The position numbers and the translations under genes were made by a program. Shown piece by piece: positions 5,262-48,763 of a stretch of DNA of 64,000 nt. Source of the DNA: an uncultured Acidobacteriota bacterium (lineage in GTDB: Bacteria; Acidobacteriota; Vicinamibacteria; Vicinamibacterales; UBA2999). Numbering within the stretch: the stretch's first letter is position 1; every line of letters begins with the position of its first letter. The notes beneath the pieces were generated by a model. That model did no database searches and was not told where the DNA came from. It saw only the letters and a list, made by a program, of their open reading frames with translations. The stretch spans positions 14,649-78,648 of the forward strand of contig CAVTIA010000013.1 in the NCBI GenBank assembly GCA_963734635.1, in the 5' to 3' direction.

Positions 5262-6229
5262 CCTGGTCGCTGGCCCTAATCCAGGAATTGGAGGGCGGCG
5301 CCTCCATTCGGTCTGGTTCAGCTAGGGTACCGCGATTAAGGCTCGCGCTTCGGCTCGCGACTGAGTGGGTCGAGTCTGTGTCAGCGCACTGTCTCTGGAC
5401 GCGGATATCCGCGCCTACTTTGACAGCATCGATCAGACGAAGCTGCTCAAGCTGGTAAGTCTGCGAGTCTCGGATCGGCGGGTGCTGAAGCTGCTGCGGC
5501 AGTGGCTCGCCGCGGGTGTGATGGAGGAGGGCCGGTGGGCTGGCACGCCGACGGGCACCCCGCAAGGCGGGGTGATCTCGCCGCTGCTGTCCAACATCTA
5601 CCTGCATGTCCTCGACCGGCTGTGGGAGGACCGGTGTGCGCACCTGGGCACGCTGGTCCGCTACGCTGACGATTTTGTGGTGATGTGTGCCACGAAAGCG
5701 GCGGTCGAGGAAGCCCGGCAGCGGGTGAGCGCCGTGCTCACGCGTCTCGGGCTCGAGCTGCAACCGGAGAAGACGAGGCTGGTCGATCTCTCGCGCGGTC
5801 GCGAGGGCTTCGATTTCCTCGGGTGTCATCTGCGCAAGCGATTCAGCGGGCCGCTGTGGGCACGGACGCATCGCCGCGTCTATTACCTGCAGCGCTGGCC
5901 GTCCGCGCGCGCGACGGCACGGGTGCGTGCTCGCGTACGGGAGCTGACGCCTCGCCGGTGCCACGAGGAGCTCCGCAGCGTCATTGCGGACCTCAATCGG
6001 GTACTGCGGGGGTGGGGGCGTACTTTCGTACGGGCAATGCGGCGATCAAATTCGTCCAGATCGACCGCTTGTCGTGGAGCGCTTGCGCGCCTCGCTGATC
6101 AAACGGCATGGCGCGCGGCTGCGCCCCGGCCGTGTCGAGGCGTGGCATCGTCCCTTCTTCGAGGCCTTAGGACTCTGCCGGCTTAACGGAACGATTCAGT
6201 ATCCGGGGACAGCACAATGCCGCACTTAA
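5262..6229 (+). pseudogene. group II intron reverse transcriptase/maturase, N-terminally degraded and multiply frameshifted
   Basis: [31 protein letters not shown] and [10 protein letters not shown] (YADD) lie in ORF 5365..6186. The maturase tail is split: LRGWG (frame 1), [17 protein letters not shown] (ORF 5685..6098), [18 protein letters not shown]...LNGTIQYPG (ORF 5984..6229). Upstream remnants IRSGSAR...ATEWV are in yet another frame with stops. Confidence 0.8.
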
Positions 6230-6242
6230 CAGGGTCACCGGG

Positions 6243-6275
6243 AAGCCGTGTGCGGGAAATCCGCACGCACGGTTT
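6243..6275 (+). ncRNA. group II intron domain V-like hairpin
   Basis: AAGCCGTGTGCGGGAAATCCGCACGCACGGTTT has an AGC triad at the 5' base, an AC bulge on the 3' strand and a GAAA-type loop. It aligns position by position with the canonical GAGCCGTATGCGATGAAAGTCGCACGTACGGTTC, one nt short in the loop. Confidence 0.7.
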
Positions 6276-6414
6276 GATGGGGGGTGCTATGTCCGATGCG
6301 GCGTCGCCGGCGGAATCGGCTGGCATCTACCCGAACCAACCCAGCCATCGATGGCGCTGACCCCCGGCGGTCGCATCGATGGGAAGTCGGCGACCGTTGC
6401 GCAGATGAAGGCCC

Positions 6415-8639: not shown

Positions 8640-9438
8640 TGCGGACCGAGCTCGGCGATGCGATACCCGTCCGGATGTGTCCGGTTCGGGCTGTCGGTGA
8701 AAAAGTGCGGCTCGCGGCGTGGCGGCAGCCAACGCACCACGCCGCCGCGCAGCTTGAGCGCGCCCCTCAGCAGGGGTCTCGTCAACGGCAGTGGTCTGGG
8801 AAACCCAAATGCCGCGATGGTCTCGTCGTCGAACATGGCGTAGATGGCATATCGCACCAATGGTGTGAGCACGGCGGGAAACCACGACGCGAAGAGATCG
8901 CGCGTGGCCGATCCAACGCGCTGGTTCGACGCGGCGAAACGACAGTGCTCGCGCTCGTATGCGCGGCTCCACGCGTCGAAGGCCTCGTAAGATTCCGGAA
9001 TGTTGCGAATGCCCATCCGCGTGCCGACCGCGCGCCAGAAATAGTAGTAGCCGAGCCGCGCCCCCGCTCGTATCCCCACTTGCAGATCTCGGCGAGGAGC
9101 AGCGACGTGTCATGGTAGCGGCGCTGGGAATCATGATGAAACTCGCCGGTGCGGTCGAGCAGGGCGGAGATGCTGGGGACACAGAACGTGCGAAACAGCG
9201 CGATTTCCAGCGCCCGAACATGCCACCCGAGGCTGACGTCGGTCGCCAACCTCGGCTCCTTCCCGGCGTTCGCTCCACCGTCAACAGGGTTCAACAATTT
9301 CCCCTCGGAATAGCCCGCACTTTCGCCCCTGATTAGCGGCTGTTCTGGACCGCCGGTCCGGGGTTCATCAATCCAAAGGCCCTGATCCGGCCTATCGTCC
9401 CTAATTCGGCCTATCGTCCCGCGAAGCGATCCTCTCAC
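8640..9438 (-). pseudogene. MpaB/DUF2236-family oxygenase-like gene split by a frameshift at a C5/G5 run
   Basis: ORF 8782..9438 carries LEIALFRTFCVPSISALLDRTGEF...RYHDTSLLLAEI. ORF 8168..9079 continues with RLGYYYFWRAVGTRMGIRNIPESYEAFDAWSRAYE...THPDGYRIAELGP. The frames meet at ccccc 9057-9061. Confidence 0.55.
9388..9420. repeat. 14-bp perfect direct repeat cggcctatcgtccc x2 (5-nt spacer taatt)
   Basis: Read directly (9388-9401 and 9407-9420). Lies in the lower-GC spacer about 85 nt upstream of the 9503 ORF. Possible operator. Confidence 0.7.
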
Positions 9439-9502
9439 CAGGATTCATTCTCTGTGGCTCTGTGCGTCTGTAGCGCTGTTCTCTCTGATCTCAATTTCCT
9501 CA

Positions 9503-10615: not shown

Positions 10616-10878
10616 AAGGTTTCTCGAATTACGTCCTACGAGCTTTGAGGACTTCCAGCGCCATCGGAATCAGTGAGACGGCGACGATGCCGATGGGGAC
10701 GAGCGAGAAGTTAGTACCGCTCCCGGTCAGGCCCGATGGTGCAAATCGATACTCGTCATCATCGGCGTGATGCTCCTCTTGAGATGAGGGATCCAGTCCC
10801 ACGAACAAGATCTTCGCTGCCTTGTAGCACCGCGAGTGGGCACAGTAAGATACCGGGCCGATTAACGGAGAGACTGAC

Positions 10879-18042: not shown

Positions 18043-18086
18043 GGGGAAGAGGGGAAGAGGAAGAGGAAGAGGGGGAAGCCAGGGGG
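18043..18086 (+). repeat. purine-only GGGGAAGA/GGAAGA tandem tract with four G4-G5 runs
   Basis: ggggaaga ggggaaga ggaaga ggaaga gggggaag cc aggggg. Lies between convergent stops (18021 on +, 18089 on -). Confidence 0.85.
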
Positions 18087-25832: not shown

Positions 25833-25906
25833 TCGCACCATCGCACCATCGCACCCTCGCACCGTCGGACGCACCCTCGCCCCCTCGCACCTCGCACCAT
25901 CGCACC
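25833..25906 (-). repeat. about 9-unit tandem array of TCGCACC(N) (GGTGCGA on the minus strand)
   Basis: Units at 25833, 25841, 25849, 25857, (degenerate 25865-25876), 25877, 25885, 25892 and 25900. Ends 1 nt before the aguA stop codon (25908-25910). Confidence 0.9.
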
Positions 25907-25907
25907 G

Positions 25908-26972
25908 TTAGACCGTCTGTACTCGTTGTCGTGCCGGTTCCTGCTGCGTCAGACAATGAATCGTGCCGAGCCCCCACGCGAGATCCACCGCATGGATTCC
26001 GACCACTTTGTGCGACGGCATGAGATCGGCGAGCGTGTTGAGCGCAACACGGTCGTGGGGATCGTTGAAAGTGGGCACCAGGACGACACCGTTCGCGATG
26101 TAGAAGTTGGCGTAGCTCGCTGGCAGACGCATCCCTTCCATGACGACGGGACGCGGAAATGGCAGTTTCACAATTTTCAGAGGGGCGGTTTCGGTGTTTG
26201 CCGATGCAGCGTCGAGTCGCCGCAGGTTGTCCATGGATCGGGCGTGGTTCTCGTCCGAAGGATCCTCTTCGACTGCCAGCACCACAGTGTCTCCACGCAC
26301 GAACCGCGCGACGTCGTCAACGTGCCCGTGCGTGTCGTCACCGACACAGCCTTCGCCGAGCCAGATCGTGCGCCGAATCCCGAGCCATTCCGCGAAGATG
26401 CGTTCGTAATCCTGCCGTCCAAGGCCGGGATTGCGAATTTGCACATCGCTCAGCAGCCATTCCTCAGTAACAAGGAGCAGTCCCTGGCCGTTGACCTCGA
26501 TACCGCCGCCTTCGAGGACGATGCGCTCTCCAGTGTCGGGGCGGACAGGCTCGTGGCGTCCGAGGCCGGTGAGGCGCGCCACGAAGCCGCCCACTTCGAC
26601 GTCGTGCCGCCAGTTCGAATACTTCGCCCAGCCGTTGAACGCCCAGTTCAGGAGGACGACGTCGCCCGCGGCGTCGATCACACCTGTGGGGGCGGAGTCA
26701 CGCAGCCACACGCGGTCCGTGGGCACCAGGTGAAGCGTGACCCTGTCATGCCGCACGTTGTGAGCGTCGAGCGCCACACGCACGCTTTCCATGACCTCGC
26801 GGCTGTGACAGAGAATCTCGAGCGGTTCATGCTCGGCCAGCACGCGGGCGATTTCCGCATACACCCAGGGAATCACGGGCAGCTTGCCGGGCCAATCGGG
26901 TTCGTGATGCGGCCAGGCAATCCACGTCGCACGATGTGGTTCCCACTCGGCAGGCATCCTGAGACGACGCAC
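25908..26972 (-). CDS. aguA: agmatine deiminase
   Basis: MPAEWEPHRATWIAWPH...; C-terminal GTIHCLTQQEP (catalytic Cys). Confidence 0.9.
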   Translation of the reverse strand: MRRLRMPAEWEPHRATWIAWPHHEPDWPGKLPVIPWVYAEIARVLAEHEPLEILCHSREVMESVRVALDAHNVRHDRVTLHLVPTDRVWLRDSAPTGVIDAAGDVVLLNWAFNGWAKYSNWRHDVEVGGFVARLTGLGRHEPVRPDTGERIVLEGGGIEVNGQGLLLVTEEWLLSDVQIRNPGLGRQDYERIFAEWLGIRRTIWLGEGCVGDDTHGHVDDVARFVRGDTVVLAVEEDPSDENHARSMDNLRRLDAASANTETAPLKIVKLPFPRPVVMEGMRLPASYANFYIANGVVLVPTFNDPHDRVALNTLADLMPSHKVVGIHAVDLAWGLGTIHCLTQQEPARQRVQTV

Positions 26973-39734: not shown

Positions 39735-41732
39735 TCATTGTACTTTGCGCATTCCCACGCGGGCTACGATCAGCGCCAGCCCCAGAAACAATATTGTGCT
39801 GGCCACCTCGGCAAGCGCCGTTTCCTCGCGAAAATACGGGAAGGCCGTGCCAACCGCAGCGAACGGATCGATCGCCCCGGTCCCCACGAGAATGGCGAAA
39901 AGGATTCCGGCAATCGAGCCACCTGCAATCAGCCCTGAGCTAAACAGCGTGCCCGCCCCCAGGTCGGACTCCTGGACCCGTGTCTTGCGGTCGACCCATC
40001 CCCGGACAAGGCCGCCGACGAAGATTGGGGCCGTCGTGGCGATTGGCAGGTACAGTCCGACCGCGAACGACAGCGAATGAACGCCGCAAAGCTCGACCGT
40101 GATGGCGACGAAGATGCCGACCAGCACGAGCCCCCAGGGGAGGTTCTGGTTCAGGAGTCCGGTAATGATGGTCGCCATCAGGGTCGCCTGCGGCGCCGGC
40201 ACGGCGGCCGATCCGATGCCGAAGACGTCGTGCATGTACAACGTCGTCACTCCGATGATGAGGCCTGACGCCAGTACCCCGATGATGAGTCCAATCTGCT
40301 GGTAGACAGGGGTCGCCCCGACGATGTAGCCGGTCTTGAGGTCCTGCGAAGTGGTCCCCGCGTTTGCGGCAGCGATGCACACGATCGCTCCTACGCACAG
40401 TGCGATCGGAGAATACATGTCACCTGTCCAGCCGAGTGCGACGAACAGCAGGCAGGTCAGGATCAACGTTGCGATCGTCATTCCCGAAATAGGGTTCGAC
40501 GAGGATCCGATCAGGCCTGTAATCCGTGAGGACACGGTCGCGAAGAAGAAGCCGAAGATCAGGATGAGAATGGCCGCCACGATATTTCCCTGGGTGGGCA
40601 GCCCGGGGGTGACCACCAGAAAGATTGCGAGCAGCACGGACCCGCCGAGGACGATCGCCATGGGTATGTCACGTTCGGTCCTGGTGCCGGTGCCGACAGC
40701 CGCTGCGGCCGAGAAATCGCGAAGGCTGTCTCTGGCCGACGCGACGATCGACGGAATCGTGCGCCCGAGCGTAATCAATCCCGCCGCGAGCACGCCGCCG
40801 GCTCCGATGTACCGGATGTACGCGCTCCACAGCTGATTAGGATCCATCTCCGACAGCAGGAATGGCTGCCCTGTAGCCGGATTGTTGGCGAAGTTCGGGT
40901 GGATCGGGGGAAACGGTTCGGTGATGTACTGTCCGAGAATCGACAGCAAGGGCAACAGCCCGAGCCACGCCAGCACCCCGCCGGCAACCATCGTTCCCGC
41001 GATGCGCGGTCCGATTACGTAGCCGACGCCCAGATATTCTGGAGAAATGTCGACGGCGAGTGTGGCATTCGGAAATTGGCTCGTGCGCGGCATCACGTAC
41101 CCGATTTCGGTACGAAACAGGTTGAAGATCCACGACAGCGCCTTCCAGAGGACACCAACGCCAAGACCGGCGAACACCAGCGCCGCCAGTCGGCCACCGC
41201 GCTCACCTGCGACGAGCACTTCGGCGCATGCCGTGCCTTCCGGATAGGGGAGGACACCGTGCTCCTTCACGATCAGCGCGCGCCGGAGCGGCACCATCAT
41301 CAGGACGCCGAGTATTCCGCCGGCCAGCGTCAGCAGGGTGATCTGGACGTAGTTGAAGTACGACGGCCCGAACGGCATCAGGAATATCAGCGCCGGAATG
41401 GTGAACACGACACCGCCGGCGACCGATTCCCCTGCGGACCCGATGGTCTGGACGATGTTGTTTTCGAGGATCGTCGAACCGCCAAGCCGCTTCAACACGG
41501 AGATTGCCAGCACGGCGATCGGAATAGACGCGCTGACCGTCAGCCCTGCACGGAGACCGAGATACACGGTCGAAGCCCCGAAGAGCAGACCGAACAGGAT
41601 GCCGAGAACGATTGCCTTGAACGTGAACTCTGGAGGCGACTTTGTCGCGGGGACATACGGCTTGAACTCGGGTGGTGACTGCGTCGACGACGCGTACGGC
41701 GCGAAATCGGCCATCGCGCGAGATGGTAGCAT
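39735..41732 (-). CDS. OPT-family oligopeptide transporter
   Basis: 665 aa with about 16 TM helices. The length and sequence pattern are typical of the bacterial OPT superfamily. Confidence 0.8.
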   Translation of the reverse strand: MLPSRAMADFAPYASSTQSPPEFKPYVPATKSPPEFTFKAIVLGILFGLLFGASTVYLGLRAGLTVSASIPIAVLAISVLKRLGGSTILENNIVQTIGSAGESVAGGVVFTIPALIFLMPFGPSYFNYVQITLLTLAGGILGVLMMVPLRRALIVKEHGVLPYPEGTACAEVLVAGERGGRLAALVFAGLGVGVLWKALSWIFNLFRTEIGYVMPRTSQFPNATLAVDISPEYLGVGYVIGPRIAGTMVAGGVLAWLGLLPLLSILGQYITEPFPPIHPNFANNPATGQPFLLSEMDPNQLWSAYIRYIGAGGVLAAGLITLGRTIPSIVASARDSLRDFSAAAAVGTGTRTERDIPMAIVLGGSVLLAIFLVVTPGLPTQGNIVAAILILIFGFFFATVSSRITGLIGSSSNPISGMTIATLILTCLLFVALGWTGDMYSPIALCVGAIVCIAAANAGTTSQDLKTGYIVGATPVYQQIGLIIGVLASGLIIGVTTLYMHDVFGIGSAAVPAPQATLMATIITGLLNQNLPWGLVLVGIFVAITVELCGVHSLSFAVGLYLPIATTAPIFVGGLVRGWVDRKTRVQESDLGAGTLFSSGLIAGGSIAGILFAILVGTGAIDPFAAVGTAFPYFREETALAEVASTILFLGLALIVARVGMRKVQ

Positions 41733-42412
41733 TGAACCTTGTGAATCGGCCGAACAAGCGAAGGCAAACGCCCGAACAGGTGTCCGAGCTCACGACGAAT
41801 CGACTTTCGGTTTACTTGCGTTGCCTCAACGAGCTCGACGCGGCCGGTGTTCAGACGATTTCATCGCAGGCCCTAGCCGAACAGTTCAACTTGAACGCTG
41901 CGCAGATTCGGAAGGACCTGGCGTATTTCGGCGAGTTCGGGGTTCGCGGCGTCGGCTACTACGTCAAGGAGCTCCGGCGTCATCTCCGTCAGATTCTGGG
42001 ACTCGACCGACGCCTGCGAGTGGGCATCATGGGCGCTGGAAATCTCGGGCTGGCGCTCGCCGACTACCCCGGCTTCCGTCAGGAAGGCTTCGAGATCGCT
42101 GCGCTGTTCGATATCGCGAACGAGAAAATCGGGCATGAATCGCGCGGCGGTGTACCCATTCACGACATCCGGGAGCTGAAACGGCTCGCGCGGCGCGAAC
42201 GGTTCGACATTGCGGTCATCGCCGTCCCTGCGCACCATGCGCAGCCCGTCGTCGACCAGGTCGTTGATGCAGGGATCAAGGCCATTCTGAACTTCTCGCC
42301 TGGTGCCCTGAAGGTCCCGGTTGAAGTGAAGCTGAAGAGCGTGGATCTCACCGTCTCACTGGAGAGTCTGTCGTTCTATCTCGCGCAGGGGGACCAACAG
42401 AGCGCACCGTAA
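41723..42412 (+). CDS. rex: redox-sensing transcriptional repressor Rex
   Basis: RLSVYLRCL...ISSQALAEQFNLNAAQIRKDLAYFGEFGVRGVGY... then the Rossmann motif VGIMGAGNLG. Confidence 0.85.
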   Translation: MVALNLVNRPNKRRQTPEQVSELTTNRLSVYLRCLNELDAAGVQTISSQALAEQFNLNAAQIRKDLAYFGEFGVRGVGYYVKELRRHLRQILGLDRRLRVGIMGAGNLGLALADYPGFRQEGFEIAALFDIANEKIGHESRGGVPIHDIRELKRLARRERFDIAVIAVPAHHAQPVVDQVVDAGIKAILNFSPGALKVPVEVKLKSVDLTVSLESLSFYLAQGDQQSAP

Positions 42413-42415
42413 AAC

Positions 42416-42506
42416 GGTGCGATAGTGCGATAGTGCGAGGTGCGACGGTGCGGGGTGCGAGGGTGCGAGGTGCGACGGTGCGAAGTGCGAAGGTGCGACG
42501 TGCGGG
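42416..42506 (+). repeat. about 12-unit tandem array GGTGCGA(N)
   Basis: ggtgcgat agtgcgat agtgcgag gtgcgac ggtgcgg ggtgcgag ggtgcgag gtgcgac ggtgcgaa gtgcgaa ggtgcgac gtgcggg. The first unit is the 3' arm of a hairpin (42403-42421) whose loop holds the rex stop. Confidence 0.9.
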
Positions 42507-43002
42507 ACTGTCGCATGTCGATCGCCGCGGGCGTGTGACGATGGTGGACGTCGGTGACAAGCCGATTACCCACCGCGAAGCGATCGCGCGCGGGCTGATC
42601 ACGATGAGCCGACGCGCGCTGACCGCAATTCGCCGCCGCGCGGTCGCAAAGGGCGACCCGCTCCAGGCCGCACGGCTTGCCGGCATCATGGCCGCCAAGC
42701 AGACATCGACGCTCATTCCGCTGTGTCATCCCCTTCCACTGACGCACGTCAGTGTCGAGCTGGCAGCGGCGCCCAAGGGGTACAGGATTGAGGCTCGAGT
42801 TCGAACGAGCGCGCAAACCGGCGTCGAGATGGAGGCGCTTGTTGCGGTGGCCGCTGCCGCCCTGACCATTTACGACATGGTGAAGGCAATCGACAAGGCT
42901 ATGGTTATCGGGGACGTGTGCCTTGTTGAGAAACGAGGCGGGCGGTCTGGAATTTACCGACGTTCGGATCGTTCTGGTCGGTCAGAACGTCCAGAGCCGT
43001 AA
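42493..43002 (+). CDS. moaC: cyclic pyranopterin monophosphate synthase
   Basis: LSHVD..GRVTMVDVGDKP...LIPLCHPLPL...GVEMEALVAVAAAALTIYDM. The start is uncertain: GTG 42493 lies inside the repeat array, and the ORF-track start at 42433 translates the repeats. Confidence 0.85.
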   Translation: MRRAGLSHVDRRGRVTMVDVGDKPITHREAIARGLITMSRRALTAIRRRAVAKGDPLQAARLAGIMAAKQTSTLIPLCHPLPLTHVSVELAAAPKGYRIEARVRTSAQTGVEMEALVAVAAAALTIYDMVKAIDKAMVIGDVCLVEKRGGRSGIYRRSDRSGRSERPEP

Positions 43003-46148: not shown

Positions 46149-46193
46149 AATCCGTAAATCCGTAAATTCGTAAATCCGCAAATTCGTAATCGT
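46149..46193 (-). repeat. 5.6 tandem octamers AATCCGTA/AATTCGTA/AATCCGCA between HK stop and RR start
   Basis: Read directly. In the sense (minus) orientation the units are TACGAATT TGCGGATT TACGAATT TACGGATT TACGGATT. Confidence 0.9.
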
Positions 46194-46196
46194 TGG

Positions 46197-47528
46197 TCAT
46201 GCCGTGATCTGGTCAACCGCCGCGAGCTCTGGAATCTCGATGCGAACGCGCGTGCCGCGGCCAGGCTGACTCGTCAGCGTGAATTGGGACGTCGCTCCGT
46301 AGATGACGCGAAGGCGCTCACGCACATTCGCGAGTCCGATGCCGCTCGACATCGGCTGATCCAGCCTGTCGGGCAGAAAGCCCATTCCGTCGTCTTCGAC
46401 TTCGAGAACGGCACGTCCGCCCTCACGCCAGCTGCGGATCACAATCGACCCTGGACCGATCTTGCGCGCCAGACCGTGCTTGATGGAGTTTTCGACGAGC
46501 GGCTGCAGAATCATGCTCGGAACGACGAGCTCTACCGTGTCCGCGCTGATCTCCTTGCGAACACCAAGCTTCGACCCGAACCGTACGACTTCGATGTCGA
46601 GGTATTCGTCGATCGCTTCCAGTTCTTCCCGCAGCGTGACGAAGTGCTGGTGGCTGCGAATGAGCCGACGCAGGAGTCCGGACAGCTTGATGATCAGCAT
46701 CCGCGCGGTTTCAGGCTCCGACCGGATGAAGGACGAAATCGATGCCAGCGTGTTGAACAGAAAGTGTGGATTGATCTGACTCTTCAGCGCTTCGATCTTT
46801 GCCGCCATCAGCAGCTTTTCCTGCTCTTGGAGTCGATGTTCGATGCGCGCACTGTTCCAGATCTTGATGGGTGTGGCGACGGCAAGCACCGTCGCAAGCA
46901 CGACCAGCGCTGTCATCCACATCGATGGCGAGCTGAGGAAGAACAAACGCTGAGCGCCGAACCGGAGACCGAATGCCTGCCGAAGCAACTCGAGCGCGAC
47001 AGGGGCGGTGAGTAGAACGAGCTGCCAGTTCGGCTCGAGCCGACGCACGATCTGCCACAGGTGTTTGCGTAGATCGACGAAGATGAACGGCGTGAATTGC
47101 CAGATCGCTTCCTTGGGACACACTTCGCGAATGCCGCCGCCCGCGAATGCAGAGCCGACCGCAAACGGCAGTGCGATGAGTTCCCCGGCGAACAGTGCCG
47201 GAATCGCGACGAGCACACCAACCGTCGCGCCTGCATATGGCCCCGCGATCAGCCCTGCGAGAAAGGCACCCTCCAGAGTCAGGTCGGTTGCCTTGTAATT
47301 CAGCAGTAATCGGGCCGTCACCCCCGCCATCAACGGCAAGCCAAGCGCCAGTGCGAAGACCAGACGATCGGTCCAGACGCGCCGTTCGAAGATCAGAATG
47401 TGCCTGAATCGGCGGAACCTGGCGAGCATGGTCGCGAGGACTGCCATGACCGCCAGCTTGACGATCAGCGTCGTCAGCAGCGACTGATCGGCGGAGAGGA
47501 AGATCGGGGCTTCGAGCACCGAAGCCAT
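46197..47528 (-). CDS. LytS-type sensor histidine kinase (multi-TM sensor)
   Basis: QINPHFLFNTLASISSFI (His_kinase) and an HATPase_c C-terminus (DDGMGF, GIGLANVRERL). Confidence 0.85.
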   Translation of the reverse strand: MASVLEAPIFLSADQSLLTTLIVKLAVMAVLATMLARFRRFRHILIFERRVWTDRLVFALALGLPLMAGVTARLLLNYKATDLTLEGAFLAGLIAGPYAGATVGVLVAIPALFAGELIALPFAVGSAFAGGGIREVCPKEAIWQFTPFIFVDLRKHLWQIVRRLEPNWQLVLLTAPVALELLRQAFGLRFGAQRLFFLSSPSMWMTALVVLATVLAVATPIKIWNSARIEHRLQEQEKLLMAAKIEALKSQINPHFLFNTLASISSFIRSEPETARMLIIKLSGLLRRLIRSHQHFVTLREELEAIDEYLDIEVVRFGSKLGVRKEISADTVELVVPSMILQPLVENSIKHGLARKIGPGSIVIRSWREGGRAVLEVEDDGMGFLPDRLDQPMSSGIGLANVRERLRVIYGATSQFTLTSQPGRGTRVRIEIPELAAVDQITA

Positions 47529-47561
47529 TGTAAAGTAGGCACTTCGTTTTATGATGACCAT

Positions 47562-48005
47562 ATGATTCGACCGTTGCTCGTCGGGCTTGCCACCACCTTC
47601 AAGCACATGTTCAAGAAGAAGGTTGCGGTGAACTATCCGGATGAAAAGATTCCGATGTTCCCGAAGTACCGCGGCAAGCAGGTGTTGACGCGCGACGAAA
47701 ACGGGCTAGAAAAGTGTGTCGCGTGCGGACTCTGCGCCGTCGCGTGCCCGGCGGATGCCATTTACCTCGAGGCGGCCGAAAACGACGGCAGTGTCATGGC
47801 TGGTCCCCGGTACGCGAGCGTGTATCAGATCCACAAAACTCGCTGCATCTTCTGCGGCTATTGCGAAGAAGCGTGTCCGGTGTCGGCGATTTTCATGGGC
47901 AAGGATTACGAGCTCGCCGTCTACAGCAAGGACGACTTCATCTGGGACAAAGAGGACCTGCTCGTCCCGCTCACGGCTCGGCCGGAGTCGTCTACGAGTC
48001 TCTAG
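47562..48005 (+). CDS. nuoI: NuoI-like 2x[4Fe-4S] ferredoxin subunit (NADH-quinone oxidoreductase subunit I), not next to other nuo genes
   Basis: ATG 47562. YPDEKIPMFPKYRGK, CVACGLCAVACP and CIFCGYCEEACP. Confidence 0.8.
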   Translation: MIRPLLVGLATTFKHMFKKKVAVNYPDEKIPMFPKYRGKQVLTRDENGLEKCVACGLCAVACPADAIYLEAAENDGSVMAGPRYASVYQIHKTRCIFCGYCEEACPVSAIFMGKDYELAVYSKDDFIWDKEDLLVPLTARPESSTSL

Positions 48006-48071
48006 TCTTTCGTCTTTAGTCTTTGGTCGGTCCTCGGACTAGAGACCAAAGACCAAAGACCAAAGACCAAA
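48001..48071 (+). repeat. heptamer-built long hairpin: (N)GTCTTT x3 facing GACCAAA x4
   Basis: Left arm 48001-48028 pairs with right arm 48044-48071. Mismatches fall mainly at the variable 7th heptamer position, plus one at the stem base. The 15-nt centre contains a GGTCC/GGACT mini-hairpin. Covers the nuoI stop TAG (48003-48005). Confidence 0.85.
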
Positions 48072-48088
48072 GGACCATACCCTCCGCA

Positions 48089-48763
48089 ATGCTGATCGGC
48101 GCCATCGCCGACATTCATGGCAATTTCGACGCAATGCGACGCGCCATGACGAGGCATGCGGATGTGCCGTGGTGGGTGTGCGTTGGCGATGTCGCCAGCA
48201 GCACCGGCGCCTACCCCGAGCCGCCGGCTCCGTTGTACTGGATCAAAGGCAACAACGAAGAGTTCGATCGGATTGCCGACTGGGACGCGGGCCGCGACGC
48301 GCCGCTGAATCTTTTCTACATCAGGAACGGCACTGCCGTGCGCGTCGGTCCACTTCTTGTCGCAGGTGTGGGCGGCACGTACGCTCCGAAGTGGTACGAC
48401 ACTCCGGCGGCACAACTGCCGCACACGCCGAAGGATGACAAACGCCGCCACTTTGTGCGCGAGGAGATCGAGGCCTGCAAACGGCTGCACGGCGTCGACA
48501 TTCTCATGACGCATGAAGCGCCGCGTCCATTCATCGTCAGCGCGGATGGCGATTCCGGTCCGGCGAAGCGGTGGGACGCGGGCAAGCGGCCGATCAACGA
48601 GCTGCTCGCGACCGTGAGGCCGCGACTGCACTTGTGCGGACACCATCACCGATTCGCGGAGACCGATCGCGAGGGAGTGCGGTCGGTCTGCATCGACCGG
48701 ATCAACCGGTCCTATCTGCTCATCGACGCCTCCACGGTCACATACCAGAAGATTGAGCAATGA
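48089..48763 (+). CDS. metallophosphoesterase family protein
   Basis: ATG 48089. IADIHGN, VCVGDV, KGNNE and LCGHHH. Confidence 0.75.
   Translation: MLIGAIADIHGNFDAMRRAMTRHADVPWWVCVGDVASSTGAYPEPPAPLYWIKGNNEEFDRIADWDAGRDAPLNLFYIRNGTAVRVGPLLVAGVGGTYAPKWYDTPAAQLPHTPKDDKRRHFVREEIEACKRLHGVDILMTHEAPRPFIVSADGDSGPAKRWDAGKRPINELLATVRPRLHLCGHHHRFAETDREGVRSVCIDRINRSYLLIDASTVTYQKIEQ

Follow-up and report, generated by a model that had tools for sequence, protein, structure and literature searches.

The tandem repeat at the rex-moaC junction of the window (the whole stretch of DNA analysed here, 64,000 nt) is probably a heptanucleotide microsatellite, namely an STRR-like heptameric SSR, which was born by slippage and is tolerated without conserved local function; we put the probability of this reading at about 0.6. 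Homologs of Rex place the window in Vicinamibacterales, Acidobacteriota, and since heptameric SSRs are a kind of element already described, what we report is another instance of it, in Acidobacteriota. For the rex-moaC locus itself the array matters little, and the moaC start that gene callers assign at this junction will be unpredictable. The features of the junction, together with a second array of the same unit elsewhere in the window, are listed below.

41723 to 42412, + strand: rex (redox-sensing repressor), 229 aa; NCBIfam Rex match with E 1.6e-77, start taken from the MVALNL homologs
42403 to 42421, + strand: 8-bp hairpin with loop AAA and the rex TAA at its tip; MFE fold, -13.4 kcal/mol
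42414 to 42504, + strand: tandem array of about 12 GGTGCGA(N) units; TRF, sequence and composition
42433 to 42495, + strand: ladder of five GTG codons in the moaC frame; in-frame codon scan, with two GAGGTG
42508 to 43002, + strand: conserved MoaC domain, from the LSHVD codons CTG TCG CAT GTC GAT; NCBIfam and 1ekr alignment
25833 to 25906, - strand: second GGTGCGA array of about 10 units, in a convergent spacer; TRF

TRF and a direct reading of the sequence both bear out the array of about 12 GGTGCGA(N) units which the initial annotation had reported at the junction. The units run head to tail with a length of 7 nt (±1) and far exceed three copies, as in heptameric SSRs, and the composition of the array is G46 C16 A15 T14. 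TRF describes 42416-42504 with period 7/8, 11.9 copies and the consensus GGTGCGA, while over 42414-42504 the periods of 15 (6.0 copies, score 117) and 30 (score 131) outscore period 7/8. From 42432 on, the unit spacing strictly alternates between 7 and 8 nt, which gives a 15-nt period equal to five codons. The hairpin said to hold the rex stop in its loop exists as well, with 8 bp rather than the claimed 7: positions 42403-42410 pair with 42414-42421 around the loop AAA, and the stop UAA (42410-42412) reaches from the last pair into the loop. This hairpin is present in the MFE fold of 42380-42530 and has the listed energy when folded alone. Its left arm is one inverted unit, CGCACCGU, made by the last three sense codons of rex, AGC GCA CCG (S-A-P), and its right arm is the first array unit, ACGGUGCG. 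The same layout of an inverted unit plus an array after a TAA stop is also found in L128. In 120 homologs the C-terminal tail of Rex past LSFYLAQG is variable in both length and sequence, and the homologs also move the rex start from the annotated 41672 to 41723 (MVALNL...).

On the moaC side, five GTG codons lie in frame (42433, 42448, 42463, 42478 and 42493), all of them inside the array, and no start codon is found in the moaC frame upstream of 42433, so the array element provides the moaC start. In the window, the rex stop and the only in-frame starts of moaC are thus both supplied by the junction array and its hairpin. The Shine-Dalgarno-like GAGGTG occurs at 42437-42442 and 42467-42472, in each case 5 nt 5' of a GTG (42448 and 42478), and GTGs fall in two frames within every 15 nt of the array. 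The MoaC domain begins at ORF residue 24, with the NCBIfam match starting from residue 24-26 and residue 2 of E. coli MoaC (1ekr) aligning there; the first codons of the domain include TGTCGCA, a single copy of the array unit in reverse complement. The peptides that ORF callers translate from the array had been regarded as artefacts on both strands. Both are in the mechanical ORF list, and the one on the - strand, antisense to moaC, is indeed an artefact; the one on the + strand is probably real in part, considering that arrays of relatives are in frame with the coupled moaC start.

We then turn to the relatives, which keep the gene order rex-moaC but not a spacer between the genes. The moaC start overlaps or abuts the rex stop (-30 to +5 nt) in about 68 of 77 loci, and the overlapping start is typically ATGGCTAA or GTGGCTAA, in frame with the conserved LSHVD codons. 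The view that the array fills a rex-moaC spacer is therefore not tenable, as ancestrally there is none: the array has replaced the start/stop overlap seen in these relatives, so that in the window the ancestral overlapping start of moaC is lost and the frame relation of moaC to the rex stop differs from theirs. No array is present at the junction of L004, L005 and L002 (Rex identity 96-94%), the first two of which group with the window in the moaC tree. On the whole, arrays occur at about 13 of 76 junctions, with at least nine different units. Arrays in frame with the overlapping moaC start are those of L007, L010, L012, L020, L022, L036, L058, L059, L070 and L188, and there the array encodes part of a variable, basic N-terminal MoaC tail of 3-55 residues. 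L188 and L020 read the GGTGCGA units in the frame of the window (V-R-G-A-x), and L188 is the only syntenic locus when the window is compared by blastn with the metagenome hits.

In the census described below, arrays of the GGTGCGA family are almost confined to the rex-moaC junction. Their orientation there is G-rich in the window, L020 and L188 and C-rich in L012 and L022, whose units are contiguous with moaC's CTGTCGCAC, and the moaC tree places L188 and L022 as sisters despite the opposite orientation of their arrays. This tree, which is of low resolution, lends no support to a common descent of the junction arrays of the window, L020 and L188. Some further observations were made at these loci. 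The genes rex and moaC are adjacent across Vicinamibacterales (L004-L076), usually with a stop-to-start overlap of the ATGGCTAA type, and such an overlap implies a putative translational coupling of the regulator with the cofactor-synthesis enzyme. In L058, a GGGAYTC array and its inverted array (10671-10775) both lie inside an in-frame 5' extension of moaC, and in L003 the rex reading frame stays open as far as an array of the GGGCGGGTAG type (10663-10858), giving a 285-aa Rex (P0013).

The second GGTGCGA array, on the opposite strand, is confirmed by TRF and lies near a stop codon, as had been claimed. It begins 1 nt past the TAA (25908-25910) of the agmatine deiminase (AgD) gene at 25908-26972, contains the irregular 12-mer GGTGCGTCCGAC (25864-25875 in + strand coordinates), and when folded alone is less stable than shuffled sequence (z +2.36). 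The rex-centred loci hold no AgD gene, and the AgD orthologs were gathered by a separate protein search. The spacer between AgD and the TonB receptor gene is found in the following states.

L204, AgD identity 96%: no spacer, the gene ends overlap
L205, AgD identity 93%: 7 degenerate units fill the spacer from stop to stop
L206, AgD identity 90%: 3 units within another inverted repeat
L207-L212 (six identical samples), AgD identity 87%: no spacer, 18-nt gene overlap

In addition, P0123, with an AgD identity of 94%, has an 87-nt spacer. The orientation is kept wherever the array exists at this site, whereas its presence and copy number (none, 3, 7 and about 10 units) are not. The initial annotation had named absence or hypervariability at orthologous sites as evidence against its functional proposals, and this is what we find. 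The lability of the arrays at both sites counts for a microsatellite without conserved function. The 12-mer adds another aspect. It occupies the same internal position in the second array, in the ortholog L205 (3060-3120), in L128 (5036-5110) and in L089 (- strand, close to the end of the contig), and all four share the architecture of 3-4 units, GGTGCGTCCGAC and again 3-4 units. The arrays carrying it follow at least three unrelated genes, each 1-22 nt after a TAA stop, with those of L128 and L089 sitting after genes unrelated to those of the window. The shared 12-mer suggests that some arrays may have spread as pre-formed blocks, and not purely by local slippage.

The simplest course of events for the junction starts from the match between the array unit and the reverse complement of moaC's conserved LSH codons (TGTCGCAC). 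These codons may have seeded the repeat in the lineage of the window, where replication slippage of the 7/8-nt unit would have produced direct copies and template switching inverted ones; one inverted copy, probably of the latter origin, would now form the hairpin. The array seems to have been inserted recently where the rex stop and the moaC start ancestrally overlap. Part of it would be translated into an N-terminal MoaC tail that is basic and not conserved, and ribosomes ending rex may re-initiate on the ladder of GAGGTG and GTG codons rather than on an overlapping start. The array would persist because the position tolerates insertion, the MoaC tail being variable and the 15-nt period keeping the frame, with no conserved task apparent. 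A promoter and terminator scan finds no promoter-like or terminator-like site between rex and moaC, and Rfam gives no match at the arrays, either at gathering thresholds over the whole window or with E<=1 in 42300-42620. The same position could also suit a phase-variable switch, in which gain or loss of 7/8-nt units shifts moaC in and out of frame with its start, as the repeat covers precisely the region of the start, its unit length is not divisible by three, and the copy number varies among relatives. We consider such a switch highly improbable, considering that the GTGs in two frames per 15 nt would leave an in-frame start after most slips, that moaC is a housekeeping cofactor gene, and that the junction array is kept 15-periodic.

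We now present an overall view of such arrays in a census made with TRF over the window and 83 related loci (1.42 Mb in total; period 5-12, at least 3 copies, score at least 40). The gene models in the census are crude (GC3-scored ORFs), so distances to start codons are unreliable, and the copy-number comparison is one between relatives, as an exact look-up of a window protein gave no same-species sequence. Among the 235 arrays, 158 have period 7, compared with 22 of period 8, 32 of period 9 and 5 of period 6. Intergenic sequence contains 117 of the 158 heptamer arrays, and gene edges another 32, although by the crude gene model 89% of the sequence is coding and only 11% intergenic; the excess of period 7 in Vicinamibacterales is thus concentrated outside coding sequence. 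The density is about 1.7 arrays per 10 kb, with many units per genome. Separate array sites have an identical unit in 14% of cases within a 20-kb locus and in 0.85% between loci, so the recurrence of GGTGCGA at two loci of the window, which had been noticed from the window alone, holds and reflects a general feature. Presence and copy number differ among close relatives both at the rex-moaC junction and in the AgD/TonB spacer. Certain units also recur at non-orthologous sites, for example GGCAGTA (L005, L006, L023 and L078), AATGCTG (L029, L031, L039, L042 and L074) and GGGATTT/GGGATCC (L009, L010 and others), and the recurring heptamers span many genomes, Pyrinomonadaceae included.

The census also shows that the arrays are not placed at random. 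Inverted partners, that is at least three reverse-complement units within 150 nt, accompany 105 of the 180 arrays of period 7/8 (58%), while the permuted-unit control gives 3. For the inverted pairs detected by TRF (n=34) the median span is 106 nt and the folding energy about -63 kcal/mol. Of 106 arrays that adjoin the 3' end of a gene, 64 are no more than 15 nt away from the stop codon, where uniform placement in the same spacer would give 39.4, and in many stop-proximal cases the stop codon is inside the array. On the sense strand, stop-proximal arrays have G>C in 44 against 21 cases (p=0.006) and a purine excess in 46 against 21 (p=0.003), whereas stop-distal arrays show no sense-strand bias (19 vs 23). 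In divergent spacers the array density is about half that of other spacers. In co-directional spacers the position bias is not significant (38 vs 27), predicted starts being unreliable there. A metagenome scan for three consecutive GGTGCGA units yields at least 120 loci with GC from 0.32 to 0.74, and in convergent spacers the array is nearer to the stop of the gene in whose sense it reads GGTGCGA in 15 of 17 of the matches listed (about 11 of 13 independent loci); among the same matches the arrays often begin at or overlap the stop itself. The strand and position bias proposed from two loci is therefore found at class level. In the convergent spacers of L161 and L167 we observe the order stop, (GGTGCGA)n, GC-rich palindrome, (TCGCACC)n, stop, in which the arrays on either side lengthen the stem of a hairpin that resembles a terminator.

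Stop adjacency and the sense-strand excess of G are significant at class level, and pure neutrality does not explain them; nor does generic slippage account for the prevalence of period 7. The polarity of the class, with the G-rich strand in sense to the abutted stop and with frequent inverted pairs, suggests an origin that is directional, or else weak selection at the RNA level. Some specific roles were also considered for the arrays. A general role in Shine-Dalgarno tethering is rejected, as most units are without a Shine-Dalgarno-like sequence. As for frame-independent back-up stops, sense stop triplets are mildly enriched (25 vs 12, p=0.047), and GGTGCGA has none. The idea that TAA is part of the element is suggestive for the GGTGCGA family, with too few independent cases, while arrays overall show ordinary stop usage.

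The class-level pattern counts for a 3'-end element acting at the RNA level, in which the sense array would form or nucleate a structure that ends, protects or insulates the upstream transcript: the arrays adjoin stops, their G-rich strand is in sense there and in the convergent GGTGCGA matches listed, the 34 inverted pairs fold strongly, and divergent spacers are poor in arrays. The sense RNA is also the more stable one in 12 of 15 co-directional cases, although a Wilcoxon comparison of sense with antisense energies is not significant (p=0.135). At the two window loci, however, this explanation meets difficulties. The junction array has only one inverted unit, and its hairpin is without a U-tract, running into the array instead. 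An intrinsic terminator, with a GC-rich stem-loop and a T/U run, is found at neither array, which speaks against the 3'-end formation first proposed, and the second array alone is, as seen above, poorly structured. Moreover, the coupling of rex with moaC persists throughout the order, so that a transcript ending at this point would leave moaC silent, and both arrays are absent from the closest relatives. We thus regard this explanation as unlikely. The initial annotation had also offered a two-tetrad G4 (G-quadruplex), and in its favour the G-rich strand has 50-55% G and 16-18% C, the maximum G4Hunter score in a 25-nt window reaches 1.4-1.56, and the G-rich heptamers of Xanthomonas and Nostoc form G4 in vitro (PMC4692102). 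The canonical criterion asks for four runs of at least three Gs separated by short loops, or for an element-wide G4Hunter score above about 1.2-1.5; the two arrays lack such runs and have mean scores of 0.66 and 0.89, so their G4 potential is weak. Besides, most units of Vicinamibacterales (GGCAGTA, AATGCTG, AGCTCTC and others) cannot form G4, and we give this reading very little credence.

The arrays could instead be a small dispersed, perhaps mobile, element, with pre-formed heptamer blocks of about 60-75 nt copied at or just after stops in one orientation. This would account for the common architecture around GGTGCGTCCGAC and for identical units being about 17 times more frequent within than between loci, and it would also fit a precise insertion, the gene ends overlapping in L204 and L207-212 where an array separates the two stops in the window and in L205. 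On the other hand, neither terminal inverted repeats nor target duplications nor an associated transposase are seen, the rex-moaC array is without the 12-mer, its unit could be seeded locally from moaC codons, and the three contexts of the 12-mer may belong to one genome family with gene conversion between arrays. A dispersed element is accordingly improbable in our estimation. A wider proposal joins both ideas: heptamer arrays of Vicinamibacterales would be actively generated, genome-specific, tiny dispersed elements placed in a single orientation at stops or directly after them, often as hairpins of array and inverted array, which act on transcript 3' ends (termination, protection, or insulation from Rho or exonuclease), the two GGTGCGA arrays of the window being copies. 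We find it doubtful, and the tolerated microsatellite remains our preferred reading for the junction.

As for the other features in the window, TRF finds eight arrays of 6-8-nt units (at 1593, 9450, 18043, 25833, 42416, 46149, 47997 and 48043), whereas ten block-shuffled windows give 0-1 comparable rows, so it was right to regard them as more than noise. At least six arrays, each with its own unit, had been claimed; the count is surpassed, and those at 47997 and 48043 are one inverted pair rather than unrelated units. This pair (47997-48077) consists of (AGTCTTT)x4.6 and (AGACCAA)x4.9, 14 nt apart, folds at -38 kcal/mol on the + strand and -47 kcal/mol on the - strand, and lies in a divergent spacer, with a likely ATG about 10 nt further downstream, near 48090. 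Between two - strand genes, (AATCCGTA)x5 at 46149-46189 begins about 7 nt past the stop of the gene at 46197-47606 and has G>C in sense. The array GGGGAAGA/GGAAGA at 18043-18072 is 22 nt past the stop of a + strand gene in a convergent spacer, TAGCTGG x5.6 at 1593-1631 is about 12 nt upstream of the start of the - strand gene 654-1580, and 9380-9479 holds a 19-mer x2 and CTCTGTGG x3.8 in a divergent spacer. In addition, the catalytic domain of a group II intron (Rfam RF00029, 51 bits) matches 6241-6336 on the + strand, just 3' of a 274-aa ORF at 5365-6186 (+), and the two possibly represent a truncated or degenerate group II intron.

It remains to compare the arrays with known repeat systems. 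REP/BIME elements are imperfect palindromes of 20-40 nt mobilised by RAYT transposases, whose hairpins can stabilise upstream mRNA; they resemble the arrays in lying in 3' regions and between co-transcribed genes, but are not tandem heptamers. The cyanobacterial STRR (short tandemly repeated repetitive) sequences are tandem heptamers of several families per genome in non-coding DNA. We know of no documented relationship between them and stop codons. The arrays of the window are alike in being tandem heptamers of several unit families in non-coding DNA and differ from the STRR of Calothrix and Nostoc in units and lineage; these STRR heptanucleotides are cited by Rehm et al. 2015 (PMC4692102), a paper that also cites a 2007 survey for the over-representation of heptamer SSRs in bacteria. 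In Geobacter metallireducens, GGGACCG x4 is present at 49 sites and GTTGCTYN and MTYCTGA form mostly opposite-strand pairs, with a proposed regulatory role (PMC2700814). Its genome-specific families, tandem 7-8-nt units and frequent inverted pairs are like ours, while the fixed 4-5 copies, the proposed regulator-binding site and the intragenic location of some are not (PMC2700814). The TAACTGA direct repeats of Beggiatoaceae, Cyanobacteria and Bacteroidetes, for which a post-transcriptional role has been suggested, are likewise intergenic heptamer arrays with a single unit at many loci, but they lie mostly a few nt upstream of starts, with 2-6 copies of an AT-rich unit containing stop triplets (PMC4679880).

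The nearest parallel is given by the heptameric G-rich SSRs of Xanthomonas (GGGAATC) and Nostoc (GGGGAYT), for which Rehm et al. 2015 found no function (PMC4692102). These are found 0-50 bp past the stop and in some cases overlap it, their G-rich strand being the coding one, and they agree with the arrays of Vicinamibacterales in the 7-nt unit, the intergenic bias, the stop-proximal G-rich sense strand, the inverted pairs, the scarcity in divergent spacers and the variability between close relatives (PMC4692102). Some units are also similar, namely GGGATCC, GGGATTT and GGGATCA. The differences are that Vicinamibacterales belong to another phylum and have many units per genome instead of one dominant unit, that GGTGCGA is not G4-competent, and that the junction array is placed at a stop/start overlap, with both codons coming from it. 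In Nostoc, moreover, only a few pairs are present (PMC4692102), compared with 58% of arrays paired here. The statement that such arrays have no described function is right in that none has been demonstrated for the closest described elements, those of Xanthomonas and Nostoc, Calothrix, Geobacter and Beggiatoaceae, while the arrays themselves have been described (PMC4692102, PMC4679880, PMC2700814); for heptamer arrays in Acidobacteriota we found no literature report. The class is thus an already known yet unexplained feature of several bacterial phyla, posing the questions of the period of 7, of the adjacency to stops with a G-rich sense strand and of the inverted pairs, and Vicinamibacterales, an uncultured soil order, is a good comparative system in which mutational and functional explanations can be separated.
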